Below, piece after piece: positions 23,673 through 37,405 of a DNA stretch of 64,000 nt. A program made the position numbers and the translations under genes. The stretch covers positions 19,740 to 83,739 of the forward strand of contig JBCDJJ010000003.1 of NCBI GenBank assembly GCA_038747915.1. Direction: 5' to 3'. The notes under the pieces were generated by a model. The model did not search any database and was not told the DNA's origin. It was given only the letters and a program-made list of their open reading frames with translations. Position 1 is the stretch's first letter. Each line of letters starts with the position of its first letter. Source of the stretch: Planctomycetota bacterium. GTDB lineage: Bacteria > Planctomycetota > Phycisphaerae > Phycisphaerales > UBA1924.

Positions 23673-23888
23673 ATGGCCAAGGTTCAGAAGACGACGGACT
23701 CCTCGTCGCTGGCGGAAGTCGTGGATCGCATCCTCGACAAAGGCATCGTGATCGATGCCTTCGCCAAGGTTTCGCTGGTCGGCATCGAGCTCGTCTCGGT
23801 CGAGGCCCGCGTGGTGATCGCATCCGTCGAGACGTACCTCAAGTACGCCGAGGCGATCGGTCTGACCACATCGGCGACCGCTGTCTGA
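23673..23888 (+). CDS. gvpA: Gas vesicle structural protein GvpA
   Basis: 71 aa: [63 protein letters not shown]. This is a canonical GvpA sequence. Confidence 0.9.
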
Positions 23889-23944
23889 GGACGGCGACGA
23901 TCGCGCGCGGTTGTTCGGTTCTCCCCGCCGTGCCGCCGCGCTCC

Positions 23945-23977
23945 CCGACGGAGCCTGCGCTCCGCACACTCCGTCGG
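23945..23977 (+). terminator. Hairpin downstream of gvpA (candidate attenuator/partial terminator)
   Basis: 9-bp inverted repeat CCGACGGAG ... CTCCGTCGG with a 15-nt loop, followed by CGTTCGTCC. A gvpA-proximal attenuator would fit the usual excess of GvpA transcript (inference). Confidence 0.25.
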
Positions 23978-24009
23978 CGTTCGTCCCCGCACCCATCGGC
24001 GAGCCTCGC

Positions 24010-24786
24010 ATGAGCGAGTCATCACACCACACCGACTCGGTGGGCGATCTGCTCGCGCGGGTCCGCGCCGAGCGGCTCCGCGCCGCCCAGCAGGCTGCCG
24101 AGCAGCGGCGAGCCTTTCTTGCTGAGCTTCGCAGCAGCGTCGAATCGATCCGGCAGGATGTTCGCGCGGTGGTCGACCGAGCCGCCGAGGACCCGCCCGT
24201 CGTCGAGGAAGCAGCACCAGAGACGGCATCAATGGCATCCGACGCTCAGCCATCCGAGCCACCGATCCTGAACCAGCACATGACCCAGGAGGAGTACCCC
24301 ATGCCGAAGCACACGAAGTCGTCGGCCGCTGCTAAAGAGCAGTTCTTCTCATCCCCCGAGGTGTCCGACGCCTCGGGAGCCGCCGAGGCCCCGGTCGAGT
24401 CACCCAAGAAACGGTTCTACAGCTCTCCCGATGTCGCTGCGATTGATATCGAGGCGGCCGAGCCGATTGATGCTGCCAACTCGCCGAAGCAGCAGTTCTT
24501 CTCGGCCCCGGCGGTTGGTGGTGCCGGCACAGCGCCGACGGCCGCTCCGGACCCTGCGCCGAGCAGCCCGAAGTCGGCATTCTTCTCATCACCCCCGGTC
24601 GGTGGTCAGGCGACGAGCGGTGACGCGACAGCGAAGCAGCAGTTCTTTCGTTCGCCGAGCGTTGACGGTGGCTCGGCCCCATCGACCGACTCGCCGAAGT
24701 CATCGTTCTTCTCCTCTCCGCAGGTTGGTGACTCGGTCGAGCCACCCCGCGACGAGAAGGGACGATTCGTCTCCAAGGTGGCCTGA
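24010..24786 (+). CDS. Repeat protein with six copies of a K-x-x-F-F-S-S-P-x-V motif (GvpC-position protein, novel)
   Basis: N-terminal helical domain DLLARVRAERLRAAQQAAEQRRAFLAELRSSVESIRQD. Repeats KEQFFSSPEV, KKRFYSSPDV, KQQFFSAPAV, KSAFFSSPPV, KQQFFRSPSV and KSSFFSSPQV occur about every 25 aa. Confidence 0.6.
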   Translation: MSESSHHTDSVGDLLARVRAERLRAAQQAAEQRRAFLAELRSSVESIRQDVRAVVDRAAEDPPVVEEAAPETASMASDAQPSEPPILNQHMTQEEYPMPKHTKSSAAAKEQFFSSPEVSDASGAAEAPVESPKKRFYSSPDVAAIDIEAAEPIDAANSPKQQFFSAPAVGGAGTAPTAAPDPAPSSPKSAFFSSPPVGGQATSGDATAKQQFFRSPSVDGGSAPSTDSPKSSFFSSPQVGDSVEPPRDEKGRFVSKVA

Positions 24787-24810
24787 TCCTGTGGCAAAGG
24801 GACAGACACG

Positions 24811-25662
24811 ATGAGCACCGACACCGGATCATCGCGCAACCCGGACCTCTCACGCCGGGTTGCTGACCTGCTCGCCGAGGCACGCCAGGCCCGGCTGGCC
24901 GCGAGCCGTCTCGCCTCCAACGCGCGCCGCGAGGCGCTCGCTGCGATTCGCGAGGAGGTGAGCACAATCCGCTCAGCGAGCGCCGAGGCACTCGCTCGTC
25001 CGGCCACGGAGGCGGTGCCGACAACGGACACGATCGATGTGCCGGTTGACCAAGAGGCCCCGTCGTCTGCGTTGTCAGACGATGTGAGCTCGCCGATCGC
25101 TGGTGAGGATGCAGCCGTTGAGCACGAGGCATCGACGCCTGAAGCGCCCGCGATCCTCGACCCACCTGCGGCGATCGAGTCACCCGCGGTCCCCGAGACG
25201 CCCACTATCCCTGAGTCACCCGCGGTCTCCGAGGCGCCTGTGGTTGCCGAAGCGCCCGCGGCATCCGCGGTACCGACACCGGTCTCCGGGCCGGTTCCGC
25301 CGGCCGAGACACCCGTCGAGCGTGAGGTGTCATCGCCGGAGCCTCCCACACCGCCGGCGTTGCCGGCGCGTGCAGCGAGCGCGCCTTCCGGCGAATCACC
25401 GCCATCAGAAGATCTCAGGGATGAGACCATCTGGGCACTTCCCGAGGTCGCGCCTATCCCGATGAACGCGTCCGCACCATCGCGGCACGCGTCGCCACCT
25501 GTTGCCGCAAACGATTCCCCCGCGCCCAAGACGCCGGCCTCGTCCGAAGATGCGCCGACGGATCCGGGCGCGATCCCATCGCCGCAGACGCTGCCCCCGC
25601 CGTCGGGCCCGTCGGTAATGCCCGCCCCGCCGGCGACGCTTCCACCGATGAAGCGCGCATGA
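24811..25662 (+). CDS. Pro/Ala/Glu-rich low-complexity protein with an N-terminal helical domain paralogous to 24010..24786
   Basis: N-terminus VADLLAEARQARLAASRLASNARREALAAIREEVSTIRS is homologous to the neighbour. It is followed by PESPAVPETPTIPESPAVSEAPVVAEAPA-type repeats. Confidence 0.55.
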   Translation: MSTDTGSSRNPDLSRRVADLLAEARQARLAASRLASNARREALAAIREEVSTIRSASAEALARPATEAVPTTDTIDVPVDQEAPSSALSDDVSSPIAGEDAAVEHEASTPEAPAILDPPAAIESPAVPETPTIPESPAVSEAPVVAEAPAASAVPTPVSGPVPPAETPVEREVSSPEPPTPPALPARAASAPSGESPPSEDLRDETIWALPEVAPIPMNASAPSRHASPPVAANDSPAPKTPASSEDAPTDPGAIPSPQTLPPPSGPSVMPAPPATLPPMKRA

Positions 25663-25805
25663 TGCAGGCAGCGGAGCGCGGCGCCCCCCGCTTTGGGCGG
25701 GAGCCCCGCACAGCCGGATCATGATCGAGCCCGAAGTGAAGACGTTTGGATGAAGCGTCGCGGCGCCGCTCCACTTGTGCCGGTCCGCTGCCGATAACGG
25801 TCGCC

Positions 25806-26795
25806 ATGACCAACGTCGAATCCGAATCCGCGGTCCGGCGCACCCACGCCATCGAGTTCGAGGCCTCCGAGGACTTCGTGCTCACCGCCGAGGTGCAGGC
25901 GATCACCGAGCGAGCCCTGGCGTACCTTGCGGCGGGCTACGGCATTCATCTCGCGGGCCCGGCTGGAACGGGAAAGACAACGCTCGCGTTTCATATCGCG
26001 GCGCAGCTCGGCAACCCGATCACGCTCGTGCACGGCAATGATGAGTTCGGCAGCTCCGACCTCGTCGGCCGTGACACGGGCTACGCGCGCTCGAGCGTGG
26101 TCGACAACTTCATCCACTCGGTGCTCAAGACCGAGGAGCGGGTTGACATCGCCTGGTCGGACAATCGGCTGACCACCTGCTGCGAGCAGGGGCACACGCT
26201 GGTGTACGACGAGTTCAACCGGACGAGCCCCGAGGCCAACAACATCCTGCTGAGCGTGCTCGAGGAGGGCATTCTCGATCTCCCGCGGTCCGACGGCGGC
26301 GAGCAGTACCTCGAGGTGCACCCGAACTTTCGTTGCATCCTGACATCTAATCCTGAGGAGTACGCCGGTGTACATCGGACGCAGGATGCGCTGCTCGACC
26401 GTGTCGTGACGCTCGATGTCGGTCATTACGATGAGGAGACCGAGACGCGGATCACCGCGGCCAAATCAAATCTGGACCTTGTTGATGCGGCCACCATTGT
26501 GGAGTTGGTCCGCACCATGCGGCAGGTGGGCGAGAGCCCGACACGCCCGACGATCCGGGCCGCCATCGCGATCGCACGTGTGTGCGCTGCCAGGGGGGCC
26601 AGCATCGATGCACACGACCGGTTCTTCCGCGCGGTCTGTCATGATGTGCTGCTCGGCGCACTGCGCACGGGCGGGTCCGGCCGCGGGGTGACCGCGAAGA
26701 AACTCGATGAGCTGATCGATCTCGTGCGGCAGGCTCGGGCGGTGGCCCCGCCGAAGCGGCTCGAGCGCACGGAGGCACGCGATGCGGCGGCATGA
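25806..26795 (+). CDS. gvpN: Gas vesicle protein GvpN (AAA+ ATPase)
   Basis: Walker A GPAGTGKTTLAFHIAAQLGNPITLVHGNDEFGSSDLVGRDTGY. GvpN/CbbQ-type AAA. Confidence 0.85.
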   Translation: MTNVESESAVRRTHAIEFEASEDFVLTAEVQAITERALAYLAAGYGIHLAGPAGTGKTTLAFHIAAQLGNPITLVHGNDEFGSSDLVGRDTGYARSSVVDNFIHSVLKTEERVDIAWSDNRLTTCCEQGHTLVYDEFNRTSPEANNILLSVLEEGILDLPRSDGGEQYLEVHPNFRCILTSNPEEYAGVHRTQDALLDRVVTLDVGHYDEETETRITAAKSNLDLVDAATIVELVRTMRQVGESPTRPTIRAAIAIARVCAARGASIDAHDRFFRAVCHDVLLGALRTGGSGRGVTAKKLDELIDLVRQARAVAPPKRLERTEARDAAA

Positions 26796-26825
26796 GTCGA
26801 CGCGATCGCCCCAAGGACGCCTGGC

Positions 26826-27152
26826 ATGAGCGGACCACCACGCGGACTCAACTCGATCAAGACAGCGGCGGGCGCCCGCGGCCGCGGTGCGCGTCTCTCG
26901 TCGATCTACTCGCGCATCCTGACGCTCGAACTCGAGCACGAGCGGCGCGCCATGGAGCGAGAGAACGCCATGCGCCGCGTGAGTTCCGCGGAGATCCGTA
27001 TGAAGCGGATCGAGGCCGAACTCGCGGCCCTTCGCGACCTCGCCGACAGCGCGGCCCGTGACACGGACGCGGCAGACCTTCGTACAGCGGAGATCCGCGA
27101 TGTCAAGCCTGTTGTGATGACCAAGCCCGATCGCGTCCGCCACCGGTACTGA
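26826..27152 (+). CDS. Hypothetical coiled-coil protein (GvpO-position)
   Basis: 108 aa, charged and helical: ELEHERRAMERENAMRRVSSAEIRMKRIEAELAALRDLAD. AAGGA SD 7 nt upstream. Confidence 0.45.
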   Translation: MSGPPRGLNSIKTAAGARGRGARLSSIYSRILTLELEHERRAMERENAMRRVSSAEIRMKRIEAELAALRDLADSAARDTDAADLRTAEIRDVKPVVMTKPDRVRHRY

Positions 27153-27169
27153 ACACGAGAGCGAACCAC

Positions 27170-27487
27170 ATGAAGATCAACTGCATCCACTGCGGGCACA
27201 ACTTCTCGATCGATGCCGCGTACGACGACTACGAGGGTCTCGTCCGGTGTTCGACGTGTGGGGGCTTGCTCGAGATCAAGACATCCAGCGGTGCGTTGCG
27301 CGCCGTTCGCCCCGGCGCCATCCATGGCTCGGCACAACATGCGCCCGCCGAGACATCAACGACCGATCCCGAGGTTGAGCAGATGCGCCGTGAACTCGAG
27401 CGTCTGACGGCGGAGGTCCGCGAGGCGGCAGCGGAGGCGGTCCCGGCTCCCGAGTCGCCGTCGGGCCGTGCGGTCAAGCCGCTCTAA
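27170..27487 (+). CDS. Zinc-ribbon protein
   Basis: 105 aa, with CxxC...CxxC: MKINCIHCGHNF...VRCSTCGGLLEI. Confidence 0.5.
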   Translation: MKINCIHCGHNFSIDAAYDDYEGLVRCSTCGGLLEIKTSSGALRAVRPGAIHGSAQHAPAETSTTDPEVEQMRRELERLTAEVREAAAEAVPAPESPSGRAVKPL

Positions 27488-27536
27488 TGTGATTCATGAA
27501 CTGGCAGGTCACCCCAGCGAGTACGAGCGAGAACCG

Positions 27537-28364
27537 ATGAGCGACGAATTGCATGGCCTGTACTTCTACGGCATCGCACGCGGCGCCACCGTGGCTGAGC
27601 AACTCGCTGGGGCGCCGAGCGGCCTCGACGGGCGCCCGGTGTTCGCGGTTGTTGCGGGCGCACTCGCAGCGATCGTCAGCCTTGCGCCGGATGGCCGTCT
27701 CCGCCCGCAGCGTCGGGCGCTCGGCGCCCATCAGAGCGTGCTCAAGCACATCGGTGCACGCGGGCCAGCTCTGCCGGCATCGTTCGGCGTGATCGCGCCG
27801 AGCAGCGGGGGGCTCGCAGCGGTGCTGCGGGCCAATGCGGACACACTCGACGAGCAGCTCACAGAGACCGCGGGGTGTGTCGAGATGGGTGTGAAGCTCC
27901 GATGGGACGTCGACAACGTATTCGCCGACTTCGTCGATCGGTACGAGGTGCTCCGTGAGGCGCGCGTGGGTATCGCTGAGGGAGCGGCCAGCCGGGACGA
28001 ACTCATCGAGATCGGTCAGTTGTTCGAGCGGCTACAGGGCACCGAGCGCGACGAGGCACTCGCTGCGGTCCGTGGCACGATCGACACGGCCGCGCGCCGG
28101 GTCGTCGCCAACCCGCCGCGAAGCGAGAACGAGGTGCTGAACATCGCGTGCCTGGTTGAGCGCGACCGCGAAGACGGATTCGATGCAGCGGTGCAGCGGG
28201 CCGCGGAGTCGTTCGATGAACGGTTCGCCTTCGAGATTAGTGGGCCATGGCCGCCGTTCAACTTCGTCTCCCTCCGTCTCGAGTTCGATCACGATGCCTC
28301 GGGCGACGAGGCGGCGTTCGAGGTGATCGGTGAGCCGCACGTCGAAGTGAGCGAGGCCGCCTGA
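27537..28364 (+). CDS. gvpF: Gas vesicle protein GvpF/GvpL family
   Basis: LYFYGIARG...HQSVLKHI...PASFGVIAP, the GvpL_GvpF fold signature. Confidence 0.8.
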   Translation: MSDELHGLYFYGIARGATVAEQLAGAPSGLDGRPVFAVVAGALAAIVSLAPDGRLRPQRRALGAHQSVLKHIGARGPALPASFGVIAPSSGGLAAVLRANADTLDEQLTETAGCVEMGVKLRWDVDNVFADFVDRYEVLREARVGIAEGAASRDELIEIGQLFERLQGTERDEALAAVRGTIDTAARRVVANPPRSENEVLNIACLVERDREDGFDAAVQRAAESFDERFAFEISGPWPPFNFVSLRLEFDHDASGDEAAFEVIGEPHVEVSEAA

Positions 28365-28594
28365 TGTTCATCGTCGACGACATCCTGTTCTCTCCCGCGA
28401 AGGGCTTCATGTGGATCATGCGCGAGCTGCACAAGGCGGCGAGTCAGGAGCTCGAGTCCGAGGCGGACCGCATTACAGCGGAGCTCTCGAGTCTGTACAT
28501 GCGGCTCGAGACCGGTGAGATCACCGAGGACGAGTTCGACGAGCGCGAGACCGAGCTGCTCGACCGCCTAGACGAGCTGCAGGCAGAGGAGTAG
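28364..28594 (+). CDS. gvpG: Gas vesicle protein GvpG
   Basis: MFIVDDILFSPAKGFMWIMRELHKAA. Its start overlaps the stop of gvpF (TGATG). Confidence 0.75.
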   Translation: MFIVDDILFSPAKGFMWIMRELHKAASQELESEADRITAELSSLYMRLETGEITEDEFDERETELLDRLDELQAEE

Positions 28595-28599
28595 GCACG

Positions 28600-30582
28600 A
28601 TGTCGAGGGATGCCGGGCGACCCCCGCGATTCATCGAAGACGATCGGCTCGCGATGCTCCTGTTCGGTGGCAAGGGTGGTGTCGGCAAGACGACCTCCGC
28701 TTGCGCCGCAGCGGTGCGCCTCGCGATGGATCGTCCTCAGACGAGCGTCACGCTCATCTCCACCGATCCGGCGCACAGCACGAGCGATTGCCTCGGCGAT
28801 ACGGACGATCTTCCAGAGAACCTCGAGCTTGTCGAGCTTGATTCGGCTGCGGAGCAGGCTGCATTTATCTCCGAGCACGCGGATCAGCTGCGTGAGATCG
28901 CACTCCGCGGCACGTTCTTCGATGAGGAGGATGTCGACACATTCCTCGAACTCGCGGTGCCGGGTGCGGATGAGCTGATGGCGTTCCTGACACTGGCGCA
29001 CCACGCGGAGCGCATCGAGAACTCGCCGGGAGAGCCACGCGTGGTCGTGGTCGACACCGCCCCGACCGGCCACACGCTCCGGCTGCTCGCGATGCCCGAT
29101 CTGGTCGATCGATGGCTCGGCGCACTCGATGCCTTGCTCGCCAAGCACCGGTTCATGGCTTCGGCGTTCGGGTCAACGGGTGTGGATGAGGTCGAGCTGT
29201 TCCTTGCTCGGGTGACCGGGCAGGCCGAGTGCTTTGGCCGATTGTTGCGTGACGGTTCACGGTGTCAGTTCGTGCCGGTGTTCACACCCGAATCGCTCGC
29301 GGTGGCCGAGACGAATCGCTTAGTGACCGAACTCGAGCGGCTGGGCGTGGCATGCGACGAGGCGGTGCTGAACCGGCTTGTGCCGTCAGGTGAAGGCGAC
29401 CTTGGCGAAGCGATTCGCGCCGCGCAGCATCGCCAGCTCTCGGCGCTCGATGATTCGGTGCTCTGCCTCGACATCTGGGGACTGCCGGTGGCCCCGAGCG
29501 AGCCTGTGGGTCGGGCAGCACTTGCATCGTTGTGGGACCCGGGGCTTGCACCGGGCGGCATCACCGCGTGGCTTGCGAGCGATGTCGAACACGAGCCCGC
29601 GGAGGCACCGCGCGTCATGCAGGGCCGCGCATTGTCGCTTGATCCCAAGCGTCGGCTGCTGCTCGTGGCGGGTAAGGGCGGGGTGGGGAAGACGACGGTC
29701 GCATGCGCCGCGGCGATGGCCCTTGCTGCGGCGCGAAAGAAGGGCGATGTGCTCGTCGTCTCAACGGACCCTGCGCACTCGGTGGGTGATTGCTACGGCG
29801 TGTCGCTCACCGGGGAGCCGATCGAGATCGTGCCGCGCCTGCGAGCGATGGAGATCGACGCCGAGGCAGAGTTTGATCGGTTCCGTGAGCAGTACGAGCA
29901 GGAGATCGACGCGGCCCTCGGCTCCCTGATCGAGGGGGGCGACCTGACGTTCGATCGCGAGGCGATGTCTCGACTCGTGGATCTCGCGCCGCCGGGCATC
30001 GATGAGCTGATGGCCCTCGTACGCATCATCGACGAGCTCGACGGGGTCGTCGGCCGCACCATCGTGTTCGATACCGCGCCGACCGGGCACCTGCTCCGCC
30101 TGCTCGAGACGCCGGAGCTGGTCGAGTCGTGGCTAGCCGGCGTCTTCAAGCTCATGCTGAAGTACGAGTCGGTCGTTCGGGTCCCCCGGTTGCGTGATCG
30201 GTTGATCGAGCTGAGCAAGGGGATCAAGTCCGTGCGCACGATGCTGGGCACCGCAAAGTCGTCGTCACTCGTCGCGGTTTCCATCCCCACAAGACTGGCG
30301 GTCGAGGAGCTGAGCGATCTCGCACTCGCGATCCGTTCCATGGGTGTGGCCTTGGCGGGGGTGGTGATCAACCGGTGTACACCGGATGGTGGGGGTGTCA
30401 TCCTGAGCGGACAGGCCGAGGCGGAGCGCCACTGGATCGAGGTGGCCCGACGTGCGGTGCCGGATGCTGCACCGATATGCCTTACATGGGGGGGTGAGCC
30501 GGTGGGGATCGAGCGCCTTGGTGCGCTCGGGCGCGAACTCTTTGCTGTGCACCGTGGTGGTCTGCTTTCCTCAGCCGCATGA
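28600..30582 (+). CDS. Tandem two-domain ArsA/Get3-like P-loop ATPase embedded in the gvp cluster
   Basis: Two halves, each with a deviant Walker A GKGGVGKTT (LLFGGKGGVGKTTSACAAAV and LLVAGKGGVGKTTVACAAAM) and the ArsA/Get3 switch motif DTAPTGHT (twice). Confidence 0.85.
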   Translation: MSRDAGRPPRFIEDDRLAMLLFGGKGGVGKTTSACAAAVRLAMDRPQTSVTLISTDPAHSTSDCLGDTDDLPENLELVELDSAAEQAAFISEHADQLREIALRGTFFDEEDVDTFLELAVPGADELMAFLTLAHHAERIENSPGEPRVVVVDTAPTGHTLRLLAMPDLVDRWLGALDALLAKHRFMASAFGSTGVDEVELFLARVTGQAECFGRLLRDGSRCQFVPVFTPESLAVAETNRLVTELERLGVACDEAVLNRLVPSGEGDLGEAIRAAQHRQLSALDDSVLCLDIWGLPVAPSEPVGRAALASLWDPGLAPGGITAWLASDVEHEPAEAPRVMQGRALSLDPKRRLLLVAGKGGVGKTTVACAAAMALAAARKKGDVLVVSTDPAHSVGDCYGVSLTGEPIEIVPRLRAMEIDAEAEFDRFREQYEQEIDAALGSLIEGGDLTFDREAMSRLVDLAPPGIDELMALVRIIDELDGVVGRTIVFDTAPTGHLLRLLETPELVESWLAGVFKLMLKYESVVRVPRLRDRLIELSKGIKSVRTMLGTAKSSSLVAVSIPTRLAVEELSDLALAIRSMGVALAGVVINRCTPDGGGVILSGQAEAERHWIEVARRAVPDAAPICLTWGGEPVGIERLGALGRELFAVHRGGLLSSAA

Positions 30583-30640
30583 CGAGCCGATAACCGCTAT
30601 CGATCGGTCCCGTGTTGTCGTCCTTTGGGAGTTCGTCTCG

Positions 30641-30874
30641 ATGCCGCGCACGCGTCTTCACCAAGTAGCTCGTTCGTCCGGGAGGGCGCGGTGTATCGAG
30701 CCGCAGGAGACGATCCTGTGCGACGCGCTTGACCGTGTGCTCAGTGTCGGTGTGGCGGCGCGTGGCGACCTCGTGATCGCTGTGGCGGATGTGCCGCTGA
30801 TCAAGCTGAGCCTGGGTGTGTTGCTGGCCTCGGTCGAGACCGCCGAGGGCCGGATCGAGAGGGGGACACGATGA
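30641..30874 (+). CDS. Small GvpA-family protein (GvpS/GvpM-like), not called in the ORF track as a separate gene
   Basis: 77 aa: ILCDALDRVLSVGVAARGDLVIAVADVPLIKLSLGVLLASVETAEG matches the GvpA/J/M/S core (LxxxLDRxLxxGVxxxGDxxIxxxxVxLxxLxLxxxxASVE). ATGA overlap with the gvpK start. Confidence 0.6.
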   Translation: MPRTRLHQVARSSGRARCIEPQETILCDALDRVLSVGVAARGDLVIAVADVPLIKLSLGVLLASVETAEGRIERGTR

Positions 30875-31218
30875 CCCGATGCCCGACCGAACTCGAACCG
30901 CTGCTCTCGGCGCTGGAAGACGTGACCGCGGTGGACGACTCCGAGGCGGATGCCTCGCCGCGGCTCAACGTCGACCCCGCGGATGTGAAAAAGGGGCTCG
31001 GTCAGCTCGTGCTGACCGTGGTCCGGCTGCTGCACGAGCTGCTCGAGCGTCAGGCGATCCGTCGGATCGAGTCGGGCTCGCTGACCGATGACGAGGCCGA
31101 CCGACTCGGCACGACGATGAAGCTCCAAGCCGAGGAGATCGAGAAGCTCGCCGGCTACTTCGGGCTGCGCACCGAAGATCTGAACATGGACCTCGGCCCC
31201 CTCGGCAAGTTGATGTAA
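30871..31218 (+). CDS. gvpK: Gas vesicle protein GvpK
   Basis: GLGQLVLTVVRLLHELLERQAIRRIESGSLTDDEADRLG. Confidence 0.85.
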   Translation: MTRCPTELEPLLSALEDVTAVDDSEADASPRLNVDPADVKKGLGQLVLTVVRLLHELLERQAIRRIESGSLTDDEADRLGTTMKLQAEEIEKLAGYFGLRTEDLNMDLGPLGKLM

Positions 31219-31228
31219 GGCGCGTGCG

Positions 31229-31621
31229 ATGGCGATTCAGCAGGGTGGCCCGACCCACCTGAGCACAACCAACATCGCGGACCTACTCGAGCGTGTGCTC
31301 GACAAGGGTGTGGTCATCGCGGGTGATGTCAAGCTCAAGCTGCTCGACATTGAACTTCTCACGATTCAGCTCCGTTTGGTGGTGTGCTCGGTCGACAAGG
31401 CGCAGCAGATGGGCATCGACTGGTGGTCGCAGACCAAATCGCTGTGCGCACCGGAGGAGACACCACCGATCGAGGCGGGTACAGAGGCCGAGACCAAGCC
31501 CGCGCTGCCGTCGCCCGAAGAGCACGAGGCGCTGCAGCAACGAGTGGAGGAGCTTCAACAGCAACTCGAGCAGATCCAAACCGAGCAGCAGACCCCCTGG
31601 CGGAGACCCAAGACCCCATGA
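31229..31621 (+). CDS. gvpJ: Gas vesicle protein GvpJ (GvpA family)
   Basis: LADLLERVLDKGVVIAGDVKLKLLDIELLTIQLRLVVCSVDKAQQMGIDWW. Confidence 0.85.
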   Translation: MAIQQGGPTHLSTTNIADLLERVLDKGVVIAGDVKLKLLDIELLTIQLRLVVCSVDKAQQMGIDWWSQTKSLCAPEETPPIEAGTEAETKPALPSPEEHEALQQRVEELQQQLEQIQTEQQTPWRRPKTP

Positions 31622-32247
31622 TCGCCCGTGAGGCGCCCGGAGAGCGCCGACTCGTTGTCATCCCGATGCTGCACACCGAGACGGACCTCGGCGAGCTATC
31701 AGACCGTGTTCGGCGTGAGACCGTCGCCCATGCCGGTCGACGAGCGTGGGAGCGCAAGCAGCGTGCGATCGAGCGGCTATGGAGCGAGATCACCGAATGG
31801 TCGGAGCGTGTTGCGATCCCTGAGGCCGGCATGCGGCTCTACCAGGATGGTCTGCCGGTCTGCGGACCGGGCGAGCGCGATGTCACGCGCACCATCGTGG
31901 AGGATCTCGGTACACGCGGGAGCCTGAACCATCGCATCCTGCTGAGTCTCATCGAGCGCGGGGCGACGCTCGAGGGCACCGAGTCGCCAGAGTTGCTGCT
32001 CGCCGAGTATCGCTTGGCCCGGGGCGAGGCGGAGCAGGATGGTGATGGCACCCCCGCTGCGCACGATCTGCTCGAGCAACGTGACCGGTTCATCGCGCAG
32101 CGCATCGATGCCACGCTCGAGCCTCACCAGGTCGGCGTGCTGTTCATCGGGTATTTGCACAACATCCCGCCGCACCTGCCCGCAGGCATCACGGTCGAGC
32201 ACCCCTTCGACGTTGCCGAGGCCCTCAGCCAAGGAGCACACGCATGA
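31618..32247 (+). CDS. Hypothetical gvp-cluster protein
   Basis: 209 aa, coupled by ATGA overlaps to gvpJ upstream and hsp20 downstream. No recognised motif. Confidence 0.5.
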   Translation: MIAREAPGERRLVVIPMLHTETDLGELSDRVRRETVAHAGRRAWERKQRAIERLWSEITEWSERVAIPEAGMRLYQDGLPVCGPGERDVTRTIVEDLGTRGSLNHRILLSLIERGATLEGTESPELLLAEYRLARGEAEQDGDGTPAAHDLLEQRDRFIAQRIDATLEPHQVGVLFIGYLHNIPPHLPAGITVEHPFDVAEALSQGAHA

Positions 32248-32780
32248 GCACCGCCAACACCCCACCCGGATCGTCCGGCCACCCGTCGGGCGGCCAGCCC
32301 GCAGGGTTCCTTGATGGTCTAACTCGGCTGCTTCACACGATCGGCGAGCTCGCGGACAAGGGTGCCGAGCTGAAAGAGTCCGGACTGTTCGAGACAGAGT
32401 CGGGCAAGCAGGGCCGCGTGAACGTCGGCTTCTCGATCCGCACCGCGGGGACCGGTCAACCGGGCGAGGGCGGGCTCAAGGTCGAGCCGTTTGGCAACGT
32501 GCGGCGCAACCGCGAGACGGGCGAGGCGGAACTCGCTGCGGTGCGCGAACCGATCGTCGATGTGTTCGACGAGGAGGGCGAAGCGCTGCGTGTGGTGGCC
32601 GAACTGCCCGGTATCGATGAGAGCCAGGTGACTCTCCGCGCCGATGGGCGCACGCTCGTGCTCGAGGCCGAGGATGGCTCGAAGCGCTACCACGCCGAGG
32701 TCGAGCTCCCCCGCGAGGTGCGCGTGGAGGAGGCATCGATCTCGTGCAATAACGGGATCGCGGAGATCACCTTTTCTTGA
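32244..32780 (+). CDS. Hsp20/alpha-crystallin family protein (GvpH-like position)
   Basis: ACD: ALRVVAELPGIDESQVTLRADGRTLVLEAE...YHAEVELPREV...GIAEITF. AAGGAG SD. Confidence 0.85.
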   Translation: MSTANTPPGSSGHPSGGQPAGFLDGLTRLLHTIGELADKGAELKESGLFETESGKQGRVNVGFSIRTAGTGQPGEGGLKVEPFGNVRRNRETGEAELAAVREPIVDVFDEEGEALRVVAELPGIDESQVTLRADGRTLVLEAEDGSKRYHAEVELPREVRVEEASISCNNGIAEITFS

Positions 32781-32816
32781 GCGTGTGGACCACGCCTGTA
32801 TCACGATGAGTCGGAG

Positions 32817-34979
32817 ATGCGCCGGATGATCCGCAAGAGCCCTCCCGCAGCCGAGCTGACCCGCCGGGTCGCCGAGGCCCAGCCGAAGGATGTTGGCCGC
32901 GCCATCGCGCGCCTCGATCCCTCGGATCTGCGTGAGCTCGGTCTCGCGACGGGCGACACCGTCGAGGTGGTCGGTGCGCGGACGACCGTGTGCCGAGCGC
33001 TGCCGACACGGAAGTCCGACCGGTCCGCCGGCTCGGTTCACATCGATGGGATGACGCGCGAGAACGCGCGCGTCGGTGTCGATGCGGAGGTGGCGATTCG
33101 GCCGGTGCCGTGCCCACGGGCCGAGCGTGTGGTTCTTGAGCCAGAGGCCCGCCGCCCCGATGGGAAGGAGCTGGCGTACATCGCATCGCTGCTCGATGGG
33201 CTGCCGGTTTCGTCTGGTGACCGCGTGCGGGTGAACACCTTCGGTAATCGCCCGATGCACTTCCGTGTGAAGCGCACGATGCCGGATACGGCGTGCGTCG
33301 TCGCCTCGAGCACCGCGCTGGAACTCGTGGGCGGGTCATCGAGTAGCAGCCGAGCGAAGCGGGACGCACCCGCTGCAACGCCGGCGAGCGTCTCGTACGA
33401 GGATGTCGGTGGTCTGGGCAAGCAGGTGCATCGCATCCGGGAGACGATCGAGCTCCCGCTGCGCTTCCCCGAGGTGTTCGATCGCTTGGGGATCGATCCG
33501 CCTAAGGGCGTGCTGCTGCACGGCCCGCCCGGGTGCGGCAAGACACTCATCGCCCGCGCGATCGCGCACGAGACCAATGCCAACTTCTTCGTGATCTCCG
33601 GGCCCGAGATCGTACACAAGCACTACGGCGAGTCGGAGGCCAATCTCCGCAAGGTGTGGGCCGAGGCGACGCGTCAGGGTCCATCGATCGTGTTCATCGA
33701 CGAGATCGACTCGATCGCGCCCAAGCGGGAGCAGACACAGGGCGAGGTGGAGAAGCGGATCGTCGCGACGCTTCTTACCTTGATGGACGGGCTCGAAGCC
33801 CGGCGGGGTGTTGTCGTGCTCGCTGCGACTAACCTGCCGAACAACCTCGACCCCGCCCTGCGGCGACCCGGGCGATTTGACCGGGAGATCGAGATCCCGG
33901 TGCCCGACGCGATCGGTCGTGGTGAGATCCTCGATGTGCATACGCGCGGCATGCCGCTCGCGGCCGATGTTGATCTGGATCGAGTCGCCCAGATTACACA
34001 CGGGTGCGTCGGGGCCGATCTCGAGTCACTGTGCCGTGAGGCAGCGATGCACTGTCTCCGCCAGATCATGGGGGAGATCGACTTCGTCACCGGTGATGTG
34101 CCCTACGAGAAGCTCGCCTCGCTCACGGTCTCGATGAACGATTTCGTGGCCGCGTTCGCCGAGGTCACGCCGAGCGCTCTGCGTGAGGTATTCGTCGAGA
34201 CACCGCGTGTGTCGTGGGACGATGTCGGCGGTCTCGAGGATGTAAAAGCCAAACTGGTTGAATCGGTCGACTGGCCCGTGCGGCACGCAGCACTCTTTGA
34301 AGAGGCGAAGCTCCGTCCACCCCGCGGTGTGATGCTCGCCGGCCCTCCGGGTGTGGGGAAGACGCTGATCGCCAAGGCCACCGCGAGCCAGCTCGGCGCC
34401 AACTTCATCTCGGTGAAAGGCCCGGAGCTGCTGTCGCAGTTTGTGGGCGAGTCGGAGCGAGCGATGCGCGAGGTGTTCCGAAAGGCGCGGCTGGCCTCGC
34501 CATGTGTGATTTTCCTTGACGAGGCGGATGCGCTGCTGCCTAAACGCTCCGGTTCAGCGACCGATGGCGGCGTGCGCGAGCGTGTGGCGGCTCAATTCCT
34601 CACGGAGATGGACGGCATCGAGGAGCTGCGCGGCGTGCTTGTGCTCGCGGCGACGAATCGGCTGGACATCATCGATCCTGCGGCGCTCCGGCCGGGACGG
34701 TTCGATCACGTGATCGAGCTCGGCCTGCCGACACCGGTCGATCGCGAACGCATCTTCGCGGTCCATCTGCGCGATCGCCCGACGGGCACGGCAGTCACAG
34801 CTGAAGTGCTGGCGGAGCTCGCCGGCGATGTGAGCGGAGCAGAGATCGCGGGTGTGTGCGACCGGGCCGCGATGCTCGCGGTGCGAGACAGCGTGTCGGG
34901 CGGTGCCCCGATCCGAATGACGCTCGAACACTTCCGGGGCGCAATGCGCGACATCCTCGGCGTGGAGATCGAATCATGA
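32817..34979 (+). CDS. CDC48/VAT-type AAA+ ATPase (N-domain plus D1 and D2)
   Basis: CDC48 N-domain TRRVAEAQPKDVGRAIARLDPSDLRELGLATGDTVEVVG. Two Walker A motifs, GPPGCGKTLIARAIAHE and GPPGVGKTLIAKATAS, plus two second-region-of-homology segments. Confidence 0.85.
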   Translation: MRRMIRKSPPAAELTRRVAEAQPKDVGRAIARLDPSDLRELGLATGDTVEVVGARTTVCRALPTRKSDRSAGSVHIDGMTRENARVGVDAEVAIRPVPCPRAERVVLEPEARRPDGKELAYIASLLDGLPVSSGDRVRVNTFGNRPMHFRVKRTMPDTACVVASSTALELVGGSSSSSRAKRDAPAATPASVSYEDVGGLGKQVHRIRETIELPLRFPEVFDRLGIDPPKGVLLHGPPGCGKTLIARAIAHETNANFFVISGPEIVHKHYGESEANLRKVWAEATRQGPSIVFIDEIDSIAPKREQTQGEVEKRIVATLLTLMDGLEARRGVVVLAATNLPNNLDPALRRPGRFDREIEIPVPDAIGRGEILDVHTRGMPLAADVDLDRVAQITHGCVGADLESLCREAAMHCLRQIMGEIDFVTGDVPYEKLASLTVSMNDFVAAFAEVTPSALREVFVETPRVSWDDVGGLEDVKAKLVESVDWPVRHAALFEEAKLRPPRGVMLAGPPGVGKTLIAKATASQLGANFISVKGPELLSQFVGESERAMREVFRKARLASPCVIFLDEADALLPKRSGSATDGGVRERVAAQFLTEMDGIEELRGVLVLAATNRLDIIDPAALRPGRFDHVIELGLPTPVDRERIFAVHLRDRPTGTAVTAEVLAELAGDVSGAEIAGVCDRAAMLAVRDSVSGGAPIRMTLEHFRGAMRDILGVEIES

Positions 34980-35806
34980 ACCAATCTGGTGGTCCTGCCG
35001 TCAAGTCGCGGTTTGCGGTCGAGCCCAAGCCGGAGTCGTCGCCGTCGCCTATCTACGCAGCGGCGCTGCTACCGCCGGATGCGCCCGCGATCGAGGCACC
35101 GGGGATCGAGCAAGGCCTGACGCTCCGCACGGTGGAGATCGGCGGGTGGTGTGCGTTTGCAGGTGTGGTTGGCCTCTCGATGTTCATGGGCGACGACGCC
35201 GAGCAACGGCTCCAAGACCCTGCGTGGCTCACCCCGCGTGCGATCGCGCACGAGCGGGCACTGCTCGAGGCCCGGACACACGTCGACCTGCTCCCGCTCC
35301 CATTCGGCACGGTGTTCCACTCGCTCGACTCGCTCGCAGACCGGTGCGATCGTCACGCCGAGGTACTCGCCGACTTCTTCGCCAGAACCTGCGGCGCCTC
35401 CGAATGGTGCATCAAGGTGACAGCGAGCCGGCGTGACGCGATCGAGCACGAGGTCGAGTCGCGTTTAAACCTCGAAGTCGGGGCCGAGGCGAGCGGCGCC
35501 GCGTACCTCCGCGCTCAGGCACGTCGCCGCGCGATCGAGACCGAGGTGCTCCACGATCTCTCGGCCTTCGCCGATGAACAGGCCGACCGGCTCGATGCGA
35601 TCGCTCGCGATAGCTCGGATCGGCGTCAGACATCGGGAGAGCCCGACATCGAGACACTCGCGCACTGGGCATTCCTTGTCGATCGCCGCGAGAGCGAGCG
35701 GGTGTCCGAGCTCACGCGAGAGATCAACCACGGTGCGCCCTCCGGCGTGCGTTTCGATCTCGCGGGCCCGTTCCCGCCGTACAGCTTCACCCCACGGTTG
35801 AGCTGA
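34976..35806 (+). CDS. Gas vesicle protein GvpF/GvpL family (second copy)
   Basis: WLTPRAIAHERALLEARTHVDLLPLPFGTVFHSL. ATGA overlap with the cdc48-like stop. Confidence 0.75.
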   Translation: MNQSGGPAVKSRFAVEPKPESSPSPIYAAALLPPDAPAIEAPGIEQGLTLRTVEIGGWCAFAGVVGLSMFMGDDAEQRLQDPAWLTPRAIAHERALLEARTHVDLLPLPFGTVFHSLDSLADRCDRHAEVLADFFARTCGASEWCIKVTASRRDAIEHEVESRLNLEVGAEASGAAYLRAQARRRAIETEVLHDLSAFADEQADRLDAIARDSSDRRQTSGEPDIETLAHWAFLVDRRESERVSELTREINHGAPSGVRFDLAGPFPPYSFTPRLS

Positions 35807-35841
35807 GCGCCAGACCCGCCACATCAAGGTATCTGTTCGAT

Positions 35842-35904
35842 GTTGTGTATCGCACAACGTTCGGCGCATGAAAACACTGCACTCCCTTGTGCGGGCGTGC
35901 AGTG
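35842..35904. terminator. Two hairpins in the convergent gap between gvpF2 and pyp (candidate bidirectional terminators)
   Basis: GTTGTG-TATCG-CACAAC at 35842-35858, and CACTGCAC...GTGCAGTG (8-bp arms) at 35875-35904. No clear U-tract. Confidence 0.25.
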
Positions 35905-35944
35905 TGCGGGTGTGTGTCGGGGAGTCGTGGCCGAGGTTCCGGGC

Positions 35945-36349
35945 TCAGCCGGCGACTTTGACGAAGATCCAGTTCGTCTTACTGGCCGGATCGCGGTAGA
36001 GGTGGATGTTGACCGCGGTGGGCTTCATCTTGAAGGTGAAGGTGTAGGGGAAGGCGAGGTTGAGCTGATCGGCGGCGACGCCCTTCTTGAACGAGCCGAA
36101 GAAGAGGCCGTTGTTCGAGCAGGGGGCGACCTGGGTGAAGAAGTTGCGGCCCTCGGCCTGGCTGGCGGGGATGCCAGCGAGGTTCTGCTCGTACTGGTTG
36201 TAAAGCAGGATCTTGCCGGCTTCGTCGGTCTTGATGATCCCGAAGTCGTAGCCGTCCGCGTCGCCGCGGGAGAGGTTTCCGAGTCGAGAGAACAGTTCGT
36301 CGGGGACAAAGGTGCCGTTCTGGCTGGCGGTGTTCATCATGACGCTCAT
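35945..36349 (-). CDS. pyp: Photoactive yellow protein (PAS-domain blue-light photoreceptor)
   Basis: FGIIKTDEAGKILLYNQYEQNLAGIPASQAEGRNFFTQVAPCSNNGLFFGSFKKGVAADQLNLAFPYTFTFKMKPTAVNIHLYRDPASKTNWIFVKV. It has the NFF..VAPC chromophore-Cys motif and close colinearity with Halorhodospira PYP. Confidence 0.85.
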   Translation of the reverse strand: MSVMMNTASQNGTFVPDELFSRLGNLSRGDADGYDFGIIKTDEAGKILLYNQYEQNLAGIPASQAEGRNFFTQVAPCSNNGLFFGSFKKGVAADQLNLAFPYTFTFKMKPTAVNIHLYRDPASKTNWIFVKVAG

Positions 36350-36690
36350 TCGTGTGCTCCTTGATTCAGATGCTCTTTCCATTCGGCCCGCATGACGGGC
36401 TTGTCGTCCACGATCTCGAGCGAGATCGACTTCTCGGAGAACTGCGCATCCAGGTGCTCAGCGAGCTGATTCACCTGCACGAGCAGGGCGGCGGCGGTCG
36501 ATCCGTCGGCATCGGCGATGCCTCCGAATCGCTGGTAGAGGTCGCAGAGCTGCGCCTCCAGACTACGGACCATGTTGAGAATCCCGTCGGCATCGCACAC
36601 ACCGATCTGGCTCGCGAGCTGCTCACGCTCGGCGTAGATCGATTCGAGCTGGTGCAGCGTGCCGCCGGTCTCGTTGCTGATGTTCTGCAT
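36346..36690 (-). CDS. Hypothetical protein co-operonic with pyp
   Basis: 114 aa. Its stop overlaps the pyp start by 4 nt. No recognisable domain. Confidence 0.5.
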   Translation of the reverse strand: MQNISNETGGTLHQLESIYAEREQLASQIGVCDADGILNMVRSLEAQLCDLYQRFGGIADADGSTAAALLVQVNQLAEHLDAQFSEKSISLEIVDDKPVMRAEWKEHLNQGAHE

Positions 36691-36723
36691 TCGATGTTCC
36701 TCGTGTATCGTGGCCCGAGCGGA

Positions 36724-37134
36724 TCAGGCGGCCTTGGCCCGATCCACTCGGTCGGAGATGAACGTGACGATCGTGTCAACGTCTTCCGGATCCGCGTGCT
36801 GCTCGACCACGTCGATCAGCACACTGATCCCCGAACCACGGAGCATGGACGGCTGGTCGGGCTGACCAGTCCGGAACATCGCGTAGTTCATCTTGGTGTT
36901 CAGGCCCATCCACTGGGTCTTGAAATCGATGAAGTAGGAGGCCGCGATCGAGCGGTGCTCCTCCTCCTCGTCCGTCGACTGGAGATCATGCACGACCTTG
37001 TCACGAAGGCTGTTCACCCACTGACGGGTCTCGCTGATCGCGCCCGAGTCGAATCCTTCCACTTCGATGGCGCCGTTCACGCGCTCATCGAAGGTTGCAG
37101 CGTTGAGCTGCTCAATCAAGCTACTTGCGTTCAT
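36724..37134 (-). CDS. Hypothetical protein, first gene of the pyp operon
   Basis: 136 aa, acidic. No recognisable domain. Confidence 0.5.
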   Translation of the reverse strand: MNASSLIEQLNAATFDERVNGAIEVEGFDSGAISETRQWVNSLRDKVVHDLQSTDEEEEHRSIAASYFIDFKTQWMGLNTKMNYAMFRTGQPDQPSMLRGSGISVLIDVVEQHADPEDVDTIVTFISDRVDRAKAA

Positions 37135-37405
37135 GGGGCTTCTCCGATGGGTTGGCTCACCACAGGACTGAGGAGTTGGTCGGTCGAGGCGCCTCGCTCG
37201 TTCATCTCAACGACAACCCTTCATGCAAATCGATGTAAATCCCCAAGGACCGGGGAGCACCCGTATGCCGTCGCGCACCGATCGACCGGCAATCGAACCA
37301 CGGAGCACGAAGCACACCGTGAAGGGTCGCTTCCTCTCATCGAGCGCACCCGAGAGGCCGATAGCACAGACGCGCACGCCGGGCGACGAGACGCGAGTGA
37401 CCGAG

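Follow-up and report, generated by a model that had tools for sequence, protein, structure and literature searches.

Why does a bacterial gas-vesicle operon encode an ATPase of the CDC48/VAT type, and what might such an enzyme do there? The question arises from a 64,000-nucleotide stretch of Planctomycetota DNA (hereafter the window), in which a first-pass annotation had described a full-length, double-ring AAA+ unfoldase gene within a gvp cluster. Gas-vesicle research has yet to explain how cells keep the hydrophobic GvpA family soluble, bring it to vesicles that are growing and deal with products that go wrong. The handling of these proteins also sets a practical limit to the use of acoustic reporter genes; the bacterial reporter bARGSer was built on a Serratia cluster that contains gvpZ (PMC10344784).

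Architecture of the CDC48/VAT-type protein

The gene lies on the forward strand (32817..34979) and encodes 720 amino acids from an ATG start. A second in-frame ATG at 32826 is better spaced from the GGAG at 32812-32815, and the true start could be there, three codons further in. The public database has an identical protein under the title 'MAG: AAA family ATPase [Planctomycetota bacterium]'; NCBI thus names it 'AAA family ATPase', and many of its close relatives 'CDC48 family AAA ATPase'. Pfam recovered CDC48_N (residues 17-97, E 5e-24), CDC48_2 (residues 115-170, E 1e-9), two AAA domains (E 5e-90) and two AAA_lid_3 domains, and the E-values of these HMMs exclude chance for the domain assignments. 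The NCBIfam model TIGR01243 ('CDC48 family AAA ATPase') scored 796.3 bits, slightly below its cut-off of 802.65. The best PDB match is Thermoplasma VAT (5g4g, E 2.7e-248), with an alignment that covers the N domain (from residue 16), D1, and D2 up to residue 633, the remainder of D2 being assigned through the D1/D2 repeat. At the level of sequence, the gene is thereby confirmed as a real, intact CDC48/VAT-type protein-unfolding ATPase with the full N-D1-D2 architecture that the first-pass annotation had ascribed to it. The AlphaFold2 monomer model (pLDDT 84.9) retrieves CDC48A/p97 as top Foldseek matches across about 700 columns (E 1.8e-72).

The N domain (32865..33326) comprises a double-psi barrel (residues 17-97) and a beta-clam (115-170), and is joined to D1 by a Ser/Ala-rich linker (residues 174-189) that is modelled as disordered (pLDDT <50). 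Both AAA modules were delimited with the VAT alignment and a motif table of 41 sequences, 33 of them copies linked to gvp genes. D1 (33387..34211) contains a Walker A motif GPPGCGKT (33522-33545), a pore loop VHKHYGESE (33612-33638), a Walker B motif IVFIDEIDS (33687-33713) and arginine fingers in PALRRPGRFDRE (33852-33887). The equivalents in D2 (34212..34916) are GPPGVGKT (34341-34364), LSQFVGESE (34431-34457), VIFLDEADA (34506-34532) and AALRPGRFDHV (34680-34712). The Walker B glutamates are E296 and E569. Sensor-1 is AATN in both modules, the second region of homology reads RRPGRFDRE in D1 and LRPGRFD in D2, and the peptides cited earlier were both found (GPPGCGKTLIARAIAHE at residues 236-252, GPPGVGKTLIAKATAS at 509-524). 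The residues predicted to bind and hydrolyse ATP are all present in both rings, and the integrity of these motifs and of the pore loops gives no sign of a pseudo-ATPase. Walker A, Walker B, sensor-1 and the arginine fingers are kept in all 33 gvp-linked copies; nearly all of them have K[F/H/L]YG as their D1 pore loop, and in D2 the loop has an aromatic residue (W, F or Y), mostly with V after it. By homology, the protein would assemble into a double-ring hexamer and unfold polypeptides by threading; a ring oligomer is also expected because trans-acting arginine fingers make sense only there.

The comparison with known systems places the protein closest to the archaeal unfoldases. VAT of Thermoplasma acidophilum and archaeal Cdc48 have the same N-D1-D2 architecture, and VAT, which works autonomously, has aromatic pore loops in both rings like the window protein (in D1, KYYG in VAT, KHYG in the window and KFYG in the family; in D2, KWVG in VAT and QFVG in the window). 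Unlike them, the window protein is bacterial, encoded in a gvp operon and diverged in its N domain. Judging from sequence identity, the N domain of the gvp-linked copies is specialised and clade-specific (51-58% identity among them, only 21-32% to copies without gvp linkage). The C-termini also differ. Archaeal Cdc48 docks onto the 20S proteasome through a hydrophobic-Tyr-X tail, and the sampled Promethearchaeota relatives end accordingly (..EDIYR), whereas this tail was not found in gvp-linked copies, which end in ..EEVRRGMG or similar, nor in the window protein (..GVEIES). For lack of this tail we reject a proteasome coupling of the gvp-linked CDC48. Eukaryotic p97/VCP/Cdc48 has the same full-length fold (Foldseek E ~1e-72, 43-46% identity), but its D1 pore loop is non-aromatic and its long C-terminal tail serves PUB/PUL partners, whereas the window protein stops about 20 residues past D2. 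Neither a ubiquitin system nor UBX/Npl4-Ufd1 adaptors are to be expected in this bacterium. A mycobacterial Cdc48-like protein (PDB 5e7p) is a bacterial double-AAA ATPase too and falls in the same clade. Its match spans D1-D2 (E 9.7e-135) but begins at residue 185, so that the N domain is not common to both. GvpN is also an ATPase of the cluster, encoded by a separate gene (25746-26795, forward strand) as had been noted at first; it has a single AAA_5 (MoxR-like) module and lacks an N domain. [quoted passage not shown]

Gene neighbourhood and its conservation

The part of the gvp cluster that precedes the CDC48 module lies at 23673..31621 of the forward strand. It starts with GvpA (23673-23888), followed by a repeat protein (to 24786), a Pro/Ala/Ser-rich ORF (24811-25662), GvpN, a Zn-ribbon protein (27170-27487), GvpF1 (27468-28364), GvpG (28364-28594), a tandem ArsA/Get3 ATPase (28600-30582), and the genes for GvpJ-like (30452-30874), GvpK (30871-31218) and GvpA/J-like proteins (31229-31621). 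The next gene on this strand (31618..32247) shares ATGA overlaps at both ends and encodes a conserved 209-residue protein at the position of GvpY. It has no Pfam family, and the profile of its family had no match among PDB sequences; its predicted fold would make it a member of the TIKI/TraB/ChaN/Ere superfamily, whose hallmarks are paired GxxH-type motifs and a conserved Glu. This fold is also found in some peptidases. A GvpH-type small heat-shock protein (Hsp20) comes next (32244..32780, forward strand; NCBIfam archaeal Hsp20 E 3e-31, Pfam GvpH E 5e-5) and ends 36 nt before the CDC48 gene, the gap given in the first-pass annotation. That annotation had also reported the junction with the GvpF/L gene correctly: the stop codon TGA (34977-34979) and the start codon ATG at 34976 form an ATGA overlap (34976..34979). 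The downstream gene (34976..35806, forward strand) is the last of the operon and encodes a 276-residue GvpF/L family protein of the GvpF2 subtype (Pfam GvpL_GvpF, E 5e-33), whose closest matches in other loci sit directly downstream of CDC48.

Two further ORFs of the forward strand (35840-36364 and 36352-37446) were rejected as operon genes: they have no family match and overlap minus-strand genes, including a homologue of photoactive yellow protein. The gene for this photoactive yellow protein adjoins the gvp module in the window. A scan of 22.5-37.5 kb for promoters and terminators found sites no more numerous than in shuffled sequence.

We then asked how the gene is distributed. CDC48-like segregases had been described as rare in bacteria, which is overstated, because NCBI routinely uses the name 'CDC48 family AAA ATPase'; a protein search retrieved at least 8000 proteins at E<=1e-50, and the entries with a named source among the best 120 are all bacterial. 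Two of the top matches (P0002 and P0003, 1000-1024 residues) are triple-AAA variants on short contigs rather than GvpF fusions. Every one of the 40 bacterial loci examined that encode a relative with 48% identity or more carries gvp genes: 33 of 33 genome loci, two plasmids of cultured methanotrophs and five of five sampled contigs (Methylococcus, Phycisphaerales, Sumerlaeota, Verrucomicrobiota and Acidobacteriia). None of these relatives lies by proteasome genes or in unrelated operons, and the placement of CDC48 in gvp clusters is not accidental. The usual order, GvpH-CDC48-GvpF, was found in at least 10 bacterial phyla. In most loci the gene immediately before CDC48 is Hsp20 (the gap generally being -4 to +24 nt), 17 loci besides the window have a 4-nt CDC48/GvpF overlap (ATGA or GTGA), and GvpF3 comes after GvpF2 in many. 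The loci delineate a conserved module, predicted to be translationally coupled, of GvpY-like, (GvrA), GvpH, CDC48 and GvpF2, although the GvpY-like gene is missing from several CDC48-bearing clusters (Ktedonobacter, Acetobacteraceae). Sensory regulators are often co-encoded with it (sigma-54 response regulator, PAS histidine kinase, CheY-like protein). Copies lacking gvp linkage are distant ones, such as those of Archaea and of Rhizobiales plasmids. In a neighbour-joining (NJ) analysis, the monophyly of all bacterial copies has strong bootstrap support (199/200). The gvp-linked copies group in 4/200 replicates under a strict definition and in 88/200 once the long branch of a stand-alone copy on a Lentisphaerae contig (L044) is included; we do not claim a single gvp-linked clade because these values are weak.

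Probable correspondence to Serratia GvpZ

In Serratia sp. ATCC 39006, whose gas-vesicle cluster lies at CP025084 259501-276334 (PMC10344784), the operon is ordered gvrA-gvpH-gvpZ-gvpF2 (PMC4982088). Because the structure of the window operon matches this order, with the CDC48 gene in the place of gvpZ between gvpH and gvpF2, the window gene very probably belongs to the GvpZ family, a known gene, an identification based on synteny and primer-encoded peptides. The regulator gene gvrA, which precedes gvpH in Serratia, has no counterpart at that place in the window. The Serratia pattern recurs around relatives in Methylococcus, Verrucomicrobiota, Sumerlaeota and Acidobacteriia. The published primers encode the peptides MSEE.., VRWEDVG and ..AEMFGDDA*, which are compatible with an N-D1-D2 protein of this family, as is the length of the 3' deletion arm. 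VRWEDVG, encoded by primer gvpZ_3F, occurs in 40 of 221 proteins, each time close to residue 450, which makes it the commonest D2-entry motif of the family, and the primers imply an ATGA overlap between gvpZ and gvpF2 in Serratia too. The Serratia gvpZ primer sequence was absent from every retrieved locus, and no Serratia entry occurred among the best 120 matches of a search seeded with the Methylococcus homologue. A locus labelled 'uncultured Enterobacteriaceae' (L018) is not Serratia-like: it lacks the primer sequence, and its protein is the nearest neighbour of the window protein in the NJ tree.

In the literature, GvpZ figures as non-essential and of 'unknown function' (PMC4982088, PMC9501494). 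No domain annotation for it is given in the supplements of PMC4982088 and PMC10344784, and our literature search found no paper connecting gas vesicles with a CDC48-type unfoldase. As a very probable gvpZ, the window gene represents a known though little-studied gene. The 'non-essential' verdict may need re-testing, because D2 probably survived in the published in-frame deletion. Recognition as an intact VAT-like unfoldase gives GvpZ, so far 'unknown' and 'non-essential', a functional hypothesis that is specific and can be tested, and its association with an Hsp20 and a GvpF paralogue would offer a defined physiological context for bacterial Cdc48-type ATPases.

Possible roles of the unfoldase

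On balance, and with modest confidence, we favour an accessory role in quality control, in which the ATPase would act as unfoldase or disaggregase for hydrophobic GvpA-family proteins within the gas-vesicle system. The threading hexamer would act on GvpA and on the GvpJ/GvpM types, all very hydrophobic and prone to aggregate, or on complexes that these form with GvpF/L. As a putative holdase, GvpH may keep such clients in a state from which they can be extracted, and GvpF2, presumably made in fixed ratio to CDC48 through the ATGA coupling, may bind the clade-specific N domain as an adaptor or as a chaperone that receives the product; the GvpY-like protein would be a further co-conserved partner of the three. 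Off-pathway material would thus be cleared or re-solubilised and shell assembly kept productive, which makes CDC48 a putative accessory to, rather than a core step of, assembly. [quoted passage not shown] A functional analogue, though not a relative, is the pair of small heat-shock protein and ClpB/Hsp104, which likewise combines a holdase with a double-ring AAA+ threading motor; the window ATPase differs in belonging to the classical AAA+ clade rather than to Clp/Hsp100, in lacking an M-domain, and in being paired with its holdase in one operon.

The genetic data fit a chaperone-type helper: native Serratia can do without gvpZ and gvpH (PMC4982088), whereas their deletion cut or abolished the signal in heterologous E. 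coli (PMC10344784). A later preprint reports higher gas-vesicle yield in E. coli BL21-AI upon single deletion of gvpZ or gvpH (10.1101/2024.10.30.621148), in conflict with PMC10344784. The gas-vesicle gene lists of Anabaena, Bacillus megaterium, Halobacterium and Streptomyces have no such gene (PMC9501494), and because many clusters lack one, a GvpZ-type gene is no general requirement of assembly. A bolder and tentative extension is that GvpY-like, GvpH, GvpZ and GvpF2 constitute a dedicated, operon-encoded machine for extracting proteins of the gas-vesicle shell, a bacterial Cdc48 system with the small heat-shock protein as holdase, a GvpF/L paralogue that binds the clade-specific N domain as adaptor, and possibly a hydrolase. 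If true, it would decide between re-feeding and removal of amyloid-like GvpA-family subunits, be the first defined client system of a bacterial Cdc48, and offer a way into the question of how cells handle, and might even take apart, a protein shell that is otherwise irreversible.

The intact VAT-like motor anatomy fits dismantling equally. As a segregase working on a very stable assembly, the hexamer might extract GvpA from collapsed or unwanted vesicles for loss of buoyancy or reuse of shell protein, with GvpH capturing the extracted hydrophobic subunits, and the sensory regulators and the adjoining photoactive yellow protein gene suggest regulated buoyancy. We nevertheless regard such recycling as unlikely: vesicles of the native Serratia mutant are visibly unchanged (PMC4982088), albeit with a deletion that probably kept D2, and the impaired heterologous formation in one study (PMC10344784) is left unexplained.

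An obligatory motor that remodels GvpF/L-GvpA (or GvpJ/M) complexes, and so loads the growing shell or builds its nucleus, would have a parallel in NSF, which recycles SNAREs. The fixed-ratio coupling to GvpF2, with GvpF3 next in many loci, points in this direction, as neither gvpF2 nor gvpF3 is dispensable in Serratia (PMC4982088). Such a motor is quite improbable given that gvpZ was scored non-essential in the same study, that the ATPase linked to vesicle growth is GvpN (PMC4982088, PMC9501494) and that many functional clusters lack the gene.

Haloarchaea show a GvpD-dependent loss of GvpE. By analogy, the ATPase might unfold a regulator or surplus Gvp protein and pass it to a hydrolase, for which the GvpY-like protein is a possible candidate. 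We consider this very improbable, since the fold family of the latter includes the non-proteolytic ChaN and esterases, it has no sequence-level match and is missing from the Ktedonobacter and Acetobacteraceae clusters, and the ATPase has no docking motif. A housekeeping Cdc48 that lies in the gvp cluster by chance, as the stand-alone copies on plasmids of Methylobacterium, Microvirga and Sinorhizobium and on the Lentisphaerae contig might suggest, is scarcely credible and already contradicted by the locus survey, in which every close relative is gvp-linked and gene order and stop/start overlaps are kept across phyla.

Domain structure and motor motifs

The plus-strand ORF at 32817-34979 is a real ORF that starts with ATG and codes for 720 aa; a public entry, 'MAG: AAA family ATPase [Planctomycetota bacterium]', is identical to its product. 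Pfam identifies CDC48_N (residues 17-97, E 5e-24), CDC48_2 (residues 115-170, E 1e-9), two AAA modules (D1 and D2, E 5e-90) and two AAA_lid_3 domains, and the score against NCBIfam TIGR01243 ('CDC48 family AAA ATPase') is 796.3 bits (the cut-off is slightly higher, 802.65). The best match in the PDB is VAT, the VCP-like ATPase of Thermoplasma acidophilum (5g4g, E 2.7e-248), with p97 and Cdc48 ranking next. An AlphaFold model built from 33 homologues (pLDDT 84.9) is disordered only at residues 1-8 and 174-189, the latter being the N-D1 linker, and its best fold matches include Arabidopsis CDC48A and human p97 (E about 1e-72, about 700 columns). The families, the VAT match and the fold match bear out the first-pass annotation of a full-length CDC48/VAT-type protein of the double-ring type.

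We aligned the protein with VAT and with 40 relatives. D1 contains Walker A GPPGCGKT, Walker B IVFIDEIDS, sensor-1 AATN and arginine fingers RRPGRFDRE; D2 contains GPPGVGKT, VIFLDEADA, AATN and LRPGRFD, respectively. In its pore loops the protein has KHYG in D1, where most gvp-linked relatives have KFYG and VAT has KYYG, and QFVG in D2, where VAT and most relatives have KWVG. Aromatic residues are thus present in the pore loops of both rings, as is usual for the autonomous unfoldase VAT and not for p97, whose D1 pore loop is non-aromatic. The C-terminus reads ..GVEIES, and ..EEVRRGMG or similar in gvp-linked relatives, instead of the ..EDIYR of Promethearchaeota relatives, a hydrophobic-Tyr-X type of tail that docks archaeal Cdc48 onto the 20S proteasome. 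Because pore loops, Walker B and arginine fingers are intact in D1 and D2 and this tail is missing, we rule out both a pseudo-ATPase, a possibility raised in the first-pass annotation, and coupling to the proteasome.

The Walker A cysteine (GPPGCGKT) is found in D1 in 26/33 and in D2 in 21/33 of the aligned gvp-linked copies, most of which have both; the window protein has it in D1 only (33522-33545). The equivalent cysteine of p97 D2 is redox-sensitive, and by this analogy the gvp-linked ATPases might be sensitive to oxidation. Two proteins matched in the protein search (P0002, from L068 1-3984, and P0003; 1000-1024 aa) combine a CDC48 N domain with three AAA modules, not two; both come from short metagenomic contigs, and this form could be a real triplication or an assembly artefact.

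Gas-vesicle cluster of the window

The CDC48 gene is close to the end of a gvp cluster encoded entirely on the plus strand: GvpA (23673-23888), a repeat protein (23911-24786), a Pro/Ala/Ser-rich ORF (24811-25662), GvpN (25746-26795), a Zn-ribbon protein (27170-27487), GvpF1 (27468-28364), GvpG (28364-28594), a tandem ArsA/Get3-type ATPase (28600-30582, 660 aa), GvpJ-like (30452-30874), GvpK (30871-31218), GvpA/J-like (31229-31621), a conserved GvpY-like protein (31618-32247, 209 aa), the Hsp20-type GvpH (32244-32780), CDC48 and a GvpL/GvpF protein, GvpF2 (34976-35806, 276 aa). The CDC48 stop (TGA, 34977-34979) overlaps the GvpF2 start (ATG, 34976), and GvpH ends at 32780, 36 nt upstream of the CDC48 start. 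The ATGA coupling and the Hsp20 gap reported at first reading are both present, as is every other element of that observation. ATGA overlaps occur at three junctions (31618, 32244 and 34976).

The operon ends with GvpF2, since the two plus-strand ORFs that follow (35840-36364 and 36352-37446) match no family and overlap minus-strand ORFs (35945-36382, 36346-36690 and 36724-37134); we rejected them as genes, and they are probably high-GC shadow ORFs. Convergent with this end is a homologue of photoactive yellow protein (35945-36382, minus strand; PDB PYP, E 1.3e-26), beside an AMP-binding enzyme (37223-38848, +) and an aromatic amino-acid lyase (38574-40358, +), which probably serve the PYP chromophore as p-coumarate ligase and tyrosine ammonia-lyase. 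This arrangement suggests buoyancy under blue-light control; a PYP-gvp neighbourhood has also been reported in Rhodobacter capsulatus.

In the repeat protein directly following GvpA, a K(Q/S)xFFSSPxV-like motif occurs at least five times, and the protein could be analogous to GvpC, which strengthens the shell; neither it nor the Pro/Ala/Ser-rich ORF matched a family. The small Zn-ribbon protein between GvpN and GvpF1 has counterparts in the same place at many related loci, with 40-64% identity across the ribbon. Its position is that of Serratia GvpV; when GvpV is lost, only bicone vesicles form. The ArsA-type ATPase, between GvpG and GvpJ-like, has 36-49% identity in many related loci, and its association with gvp clusters was noted in 2010 (PMC2963123). 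With GvpN and the CDC48-type protein, one cluster thus encodes three different ATPases.

Distribution and phylogeny of the gvp-linked copies

We scanned one genome per species and searched the resulting 60 loci with the Gvp proteins of the window. Of these, 33 are bacterial loci with a CDC48 relative of 48% identity or more, and every one carries gas-vesicle genes; they belong to Syntrophales and other Desulfobacterota, Geobacteraceae, Lentisphaerae/Victivallales, spirochaetes, Planctomycetes (Schlesneria), Omnitrophota, Ktedonobacteria and Acetobacteraceae. On two plasmids, from the cultured methanotrophs Methylosinus sp. C49 and Methylocella tundrae, gvpA ... gvpH are followed by a hypothetical gene and a 'CDC48 family AAA ATPase'. 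We sampled five more contigs through the protein database (Methylococcus sp. ANG, Phycisphaerales, Sumerlaeota, Verrucomicrobiota and Acidobacteriia), and all five are gvp-linked. The GvpY-like/GvpH/CDC48/GvpF2 module is thus broadly distributed and its order usually kept, which is a new point; the rarity of CDC48-like segregases in bacteria had been overstated. Copies lacking the gvp link are more distant (archaeal, 45-48%; Rhizobiales plasmids, 46-47%; one in Lentisphaerae, 40%).

With start codons picked heuristically, 17 loci show a 4-nt overlap (ATGA or GTGA) between the end of CDC48 and the beginning of GvpF, and most gaps from Hsp20 to CDC48 fall between -4 and +24 nt. The downstream GvpF is best matched by GvpF2 of the window, not GvpF1, and is a distinct subtype. 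An accidental placement of CDC48 in the cluster is effectively excluded by the survey and these conserved overlaps.

A neighbour-joining tree (200 bootstraps) sets the bacterial copies, as one group, apart from the archaea sampled (199/200). Support for a single gvp-linked clade is weak (88/200, counting in one long-branch stand-alone copy), and the Rhizobiales stand-alone clade has no stable placement. In a sample weighted toward Desulfobacterota, D1 identity is 76% among gvp-linked copies and 57% to the others, and N domain identity is 51-58% and 21-32%; this drop in the N domain suggests a partner or client specific to the clade. In the tree, the copy closest to the window protein lies on a contig labelled 'uncultured Enterobacteriaceae' (L018, 1-14388), a bin label that is probably wrong.

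Relation to Serratia GvpZ and possible function

GvpZ of Serratia sp. ATCC 39006 is described as a candidate gas-vesicle protein of undescribed function that recurs in four other proteobacterial clusters and is not needed to form vesicles (PMC4982088; also PMC9501494). The Serratia operon pattern is repeated gene for gene around relatives of the window protein (sigma-54 response regulator, GvpH, CDC48, GvpF, GvpF or PAS histidine kinase, response regulator). The published primers gvpZ_5R and gvpZ_3F (PMC4982088, Table S3) encode MSEE and VRWEDVG; the latter is the commonest D1/D2-boundary motif (40 of the 221 collected family proteins), always near residue 450 and never before D1. Joined, gvpZ_3R and gvpF2F give ..AEMFGDDA-TGA, with the gvpF2 ATG overlapping the gvpZ stop. 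Given the shared operon pattern and the fitting peptides, the window gene very probably belongs to the GvpZ family, which is already named and uncharacterised, and GvpZ can be equated with a putative VAT-like unfoldase. This too is new: a full-text literature search returned no paper in which gvp clusters are recognised as encoding a CDC48-type unfoldase.

The primers of the Serratia 'in-frame gvpZ deletion' appear to join MSEE to VRWEDVG.., the entry of D2, with a 3' arm that reaches as far as the stop of gvpZ; a complete D2 ATPase module is probably still encoded in the mutant. Because D2 was probably retained, the 'non-essential' verdict may not reflect a null allele, which is a new caveat on that result. 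During heterologous expression in E. coli, deletion of gvpH or gvpZ cut or abolished the signal (PMC10344784), which conflicts with a later preprint in which single deletions raised gas-vesicle yield (10.1101/2024.10.30.621148).

Judged by its sequence, the protein is an intact VAT-like double-ring-type motor without a proteasome tail, hard-wired to a small heat-shock protein and a GvpF paralogue. Haloarchaeal GvpH stops aggregation of the GvpA-like GvpM, and GvpF/L bind GvpA/J/M (PMC6107691, PMC9501494). We infer that GvpH would hold GvpA-family clients for a CDC48 hexamer, which would thread these aggregation-prone proteins or their complexes, with GvpF2 as adaptor or acceptor, keeping shell assembly productive; the role would be accessory and weigh most under high expression. 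The system-level interpretation of the first-pass annotation is sound, the client role itself being what we infer. Alternatively, CDC48 might dismantle or recycle gas-vesicle shells, or perform an obligatory loading step.

A further alternative is regulatory or proteolytic turnover together with the GvpY-like protein. Its 612 homologues are all 'hypothetical', and neither it nor any of them has a Pfam family; H19, E122 (inside GTESPE), R155-D156 and G178-x-x-H181 are invariant. The gene co-occurs with CDC48 at 27 loci (tblastn) and lies directly between GvpH and CDC48 in the methanotroph plasmids. A Serratia primer encodes LIHFPI, resembling the family motif LxxIPIxH; from this peptide and its position, the protein is probably the counterpart of Serratia GvpY. 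Sequence-level searches gave no support for the predicted TIKI/TraB/ChaN/Ere-like fold, with which the protein could be a hydrolase.
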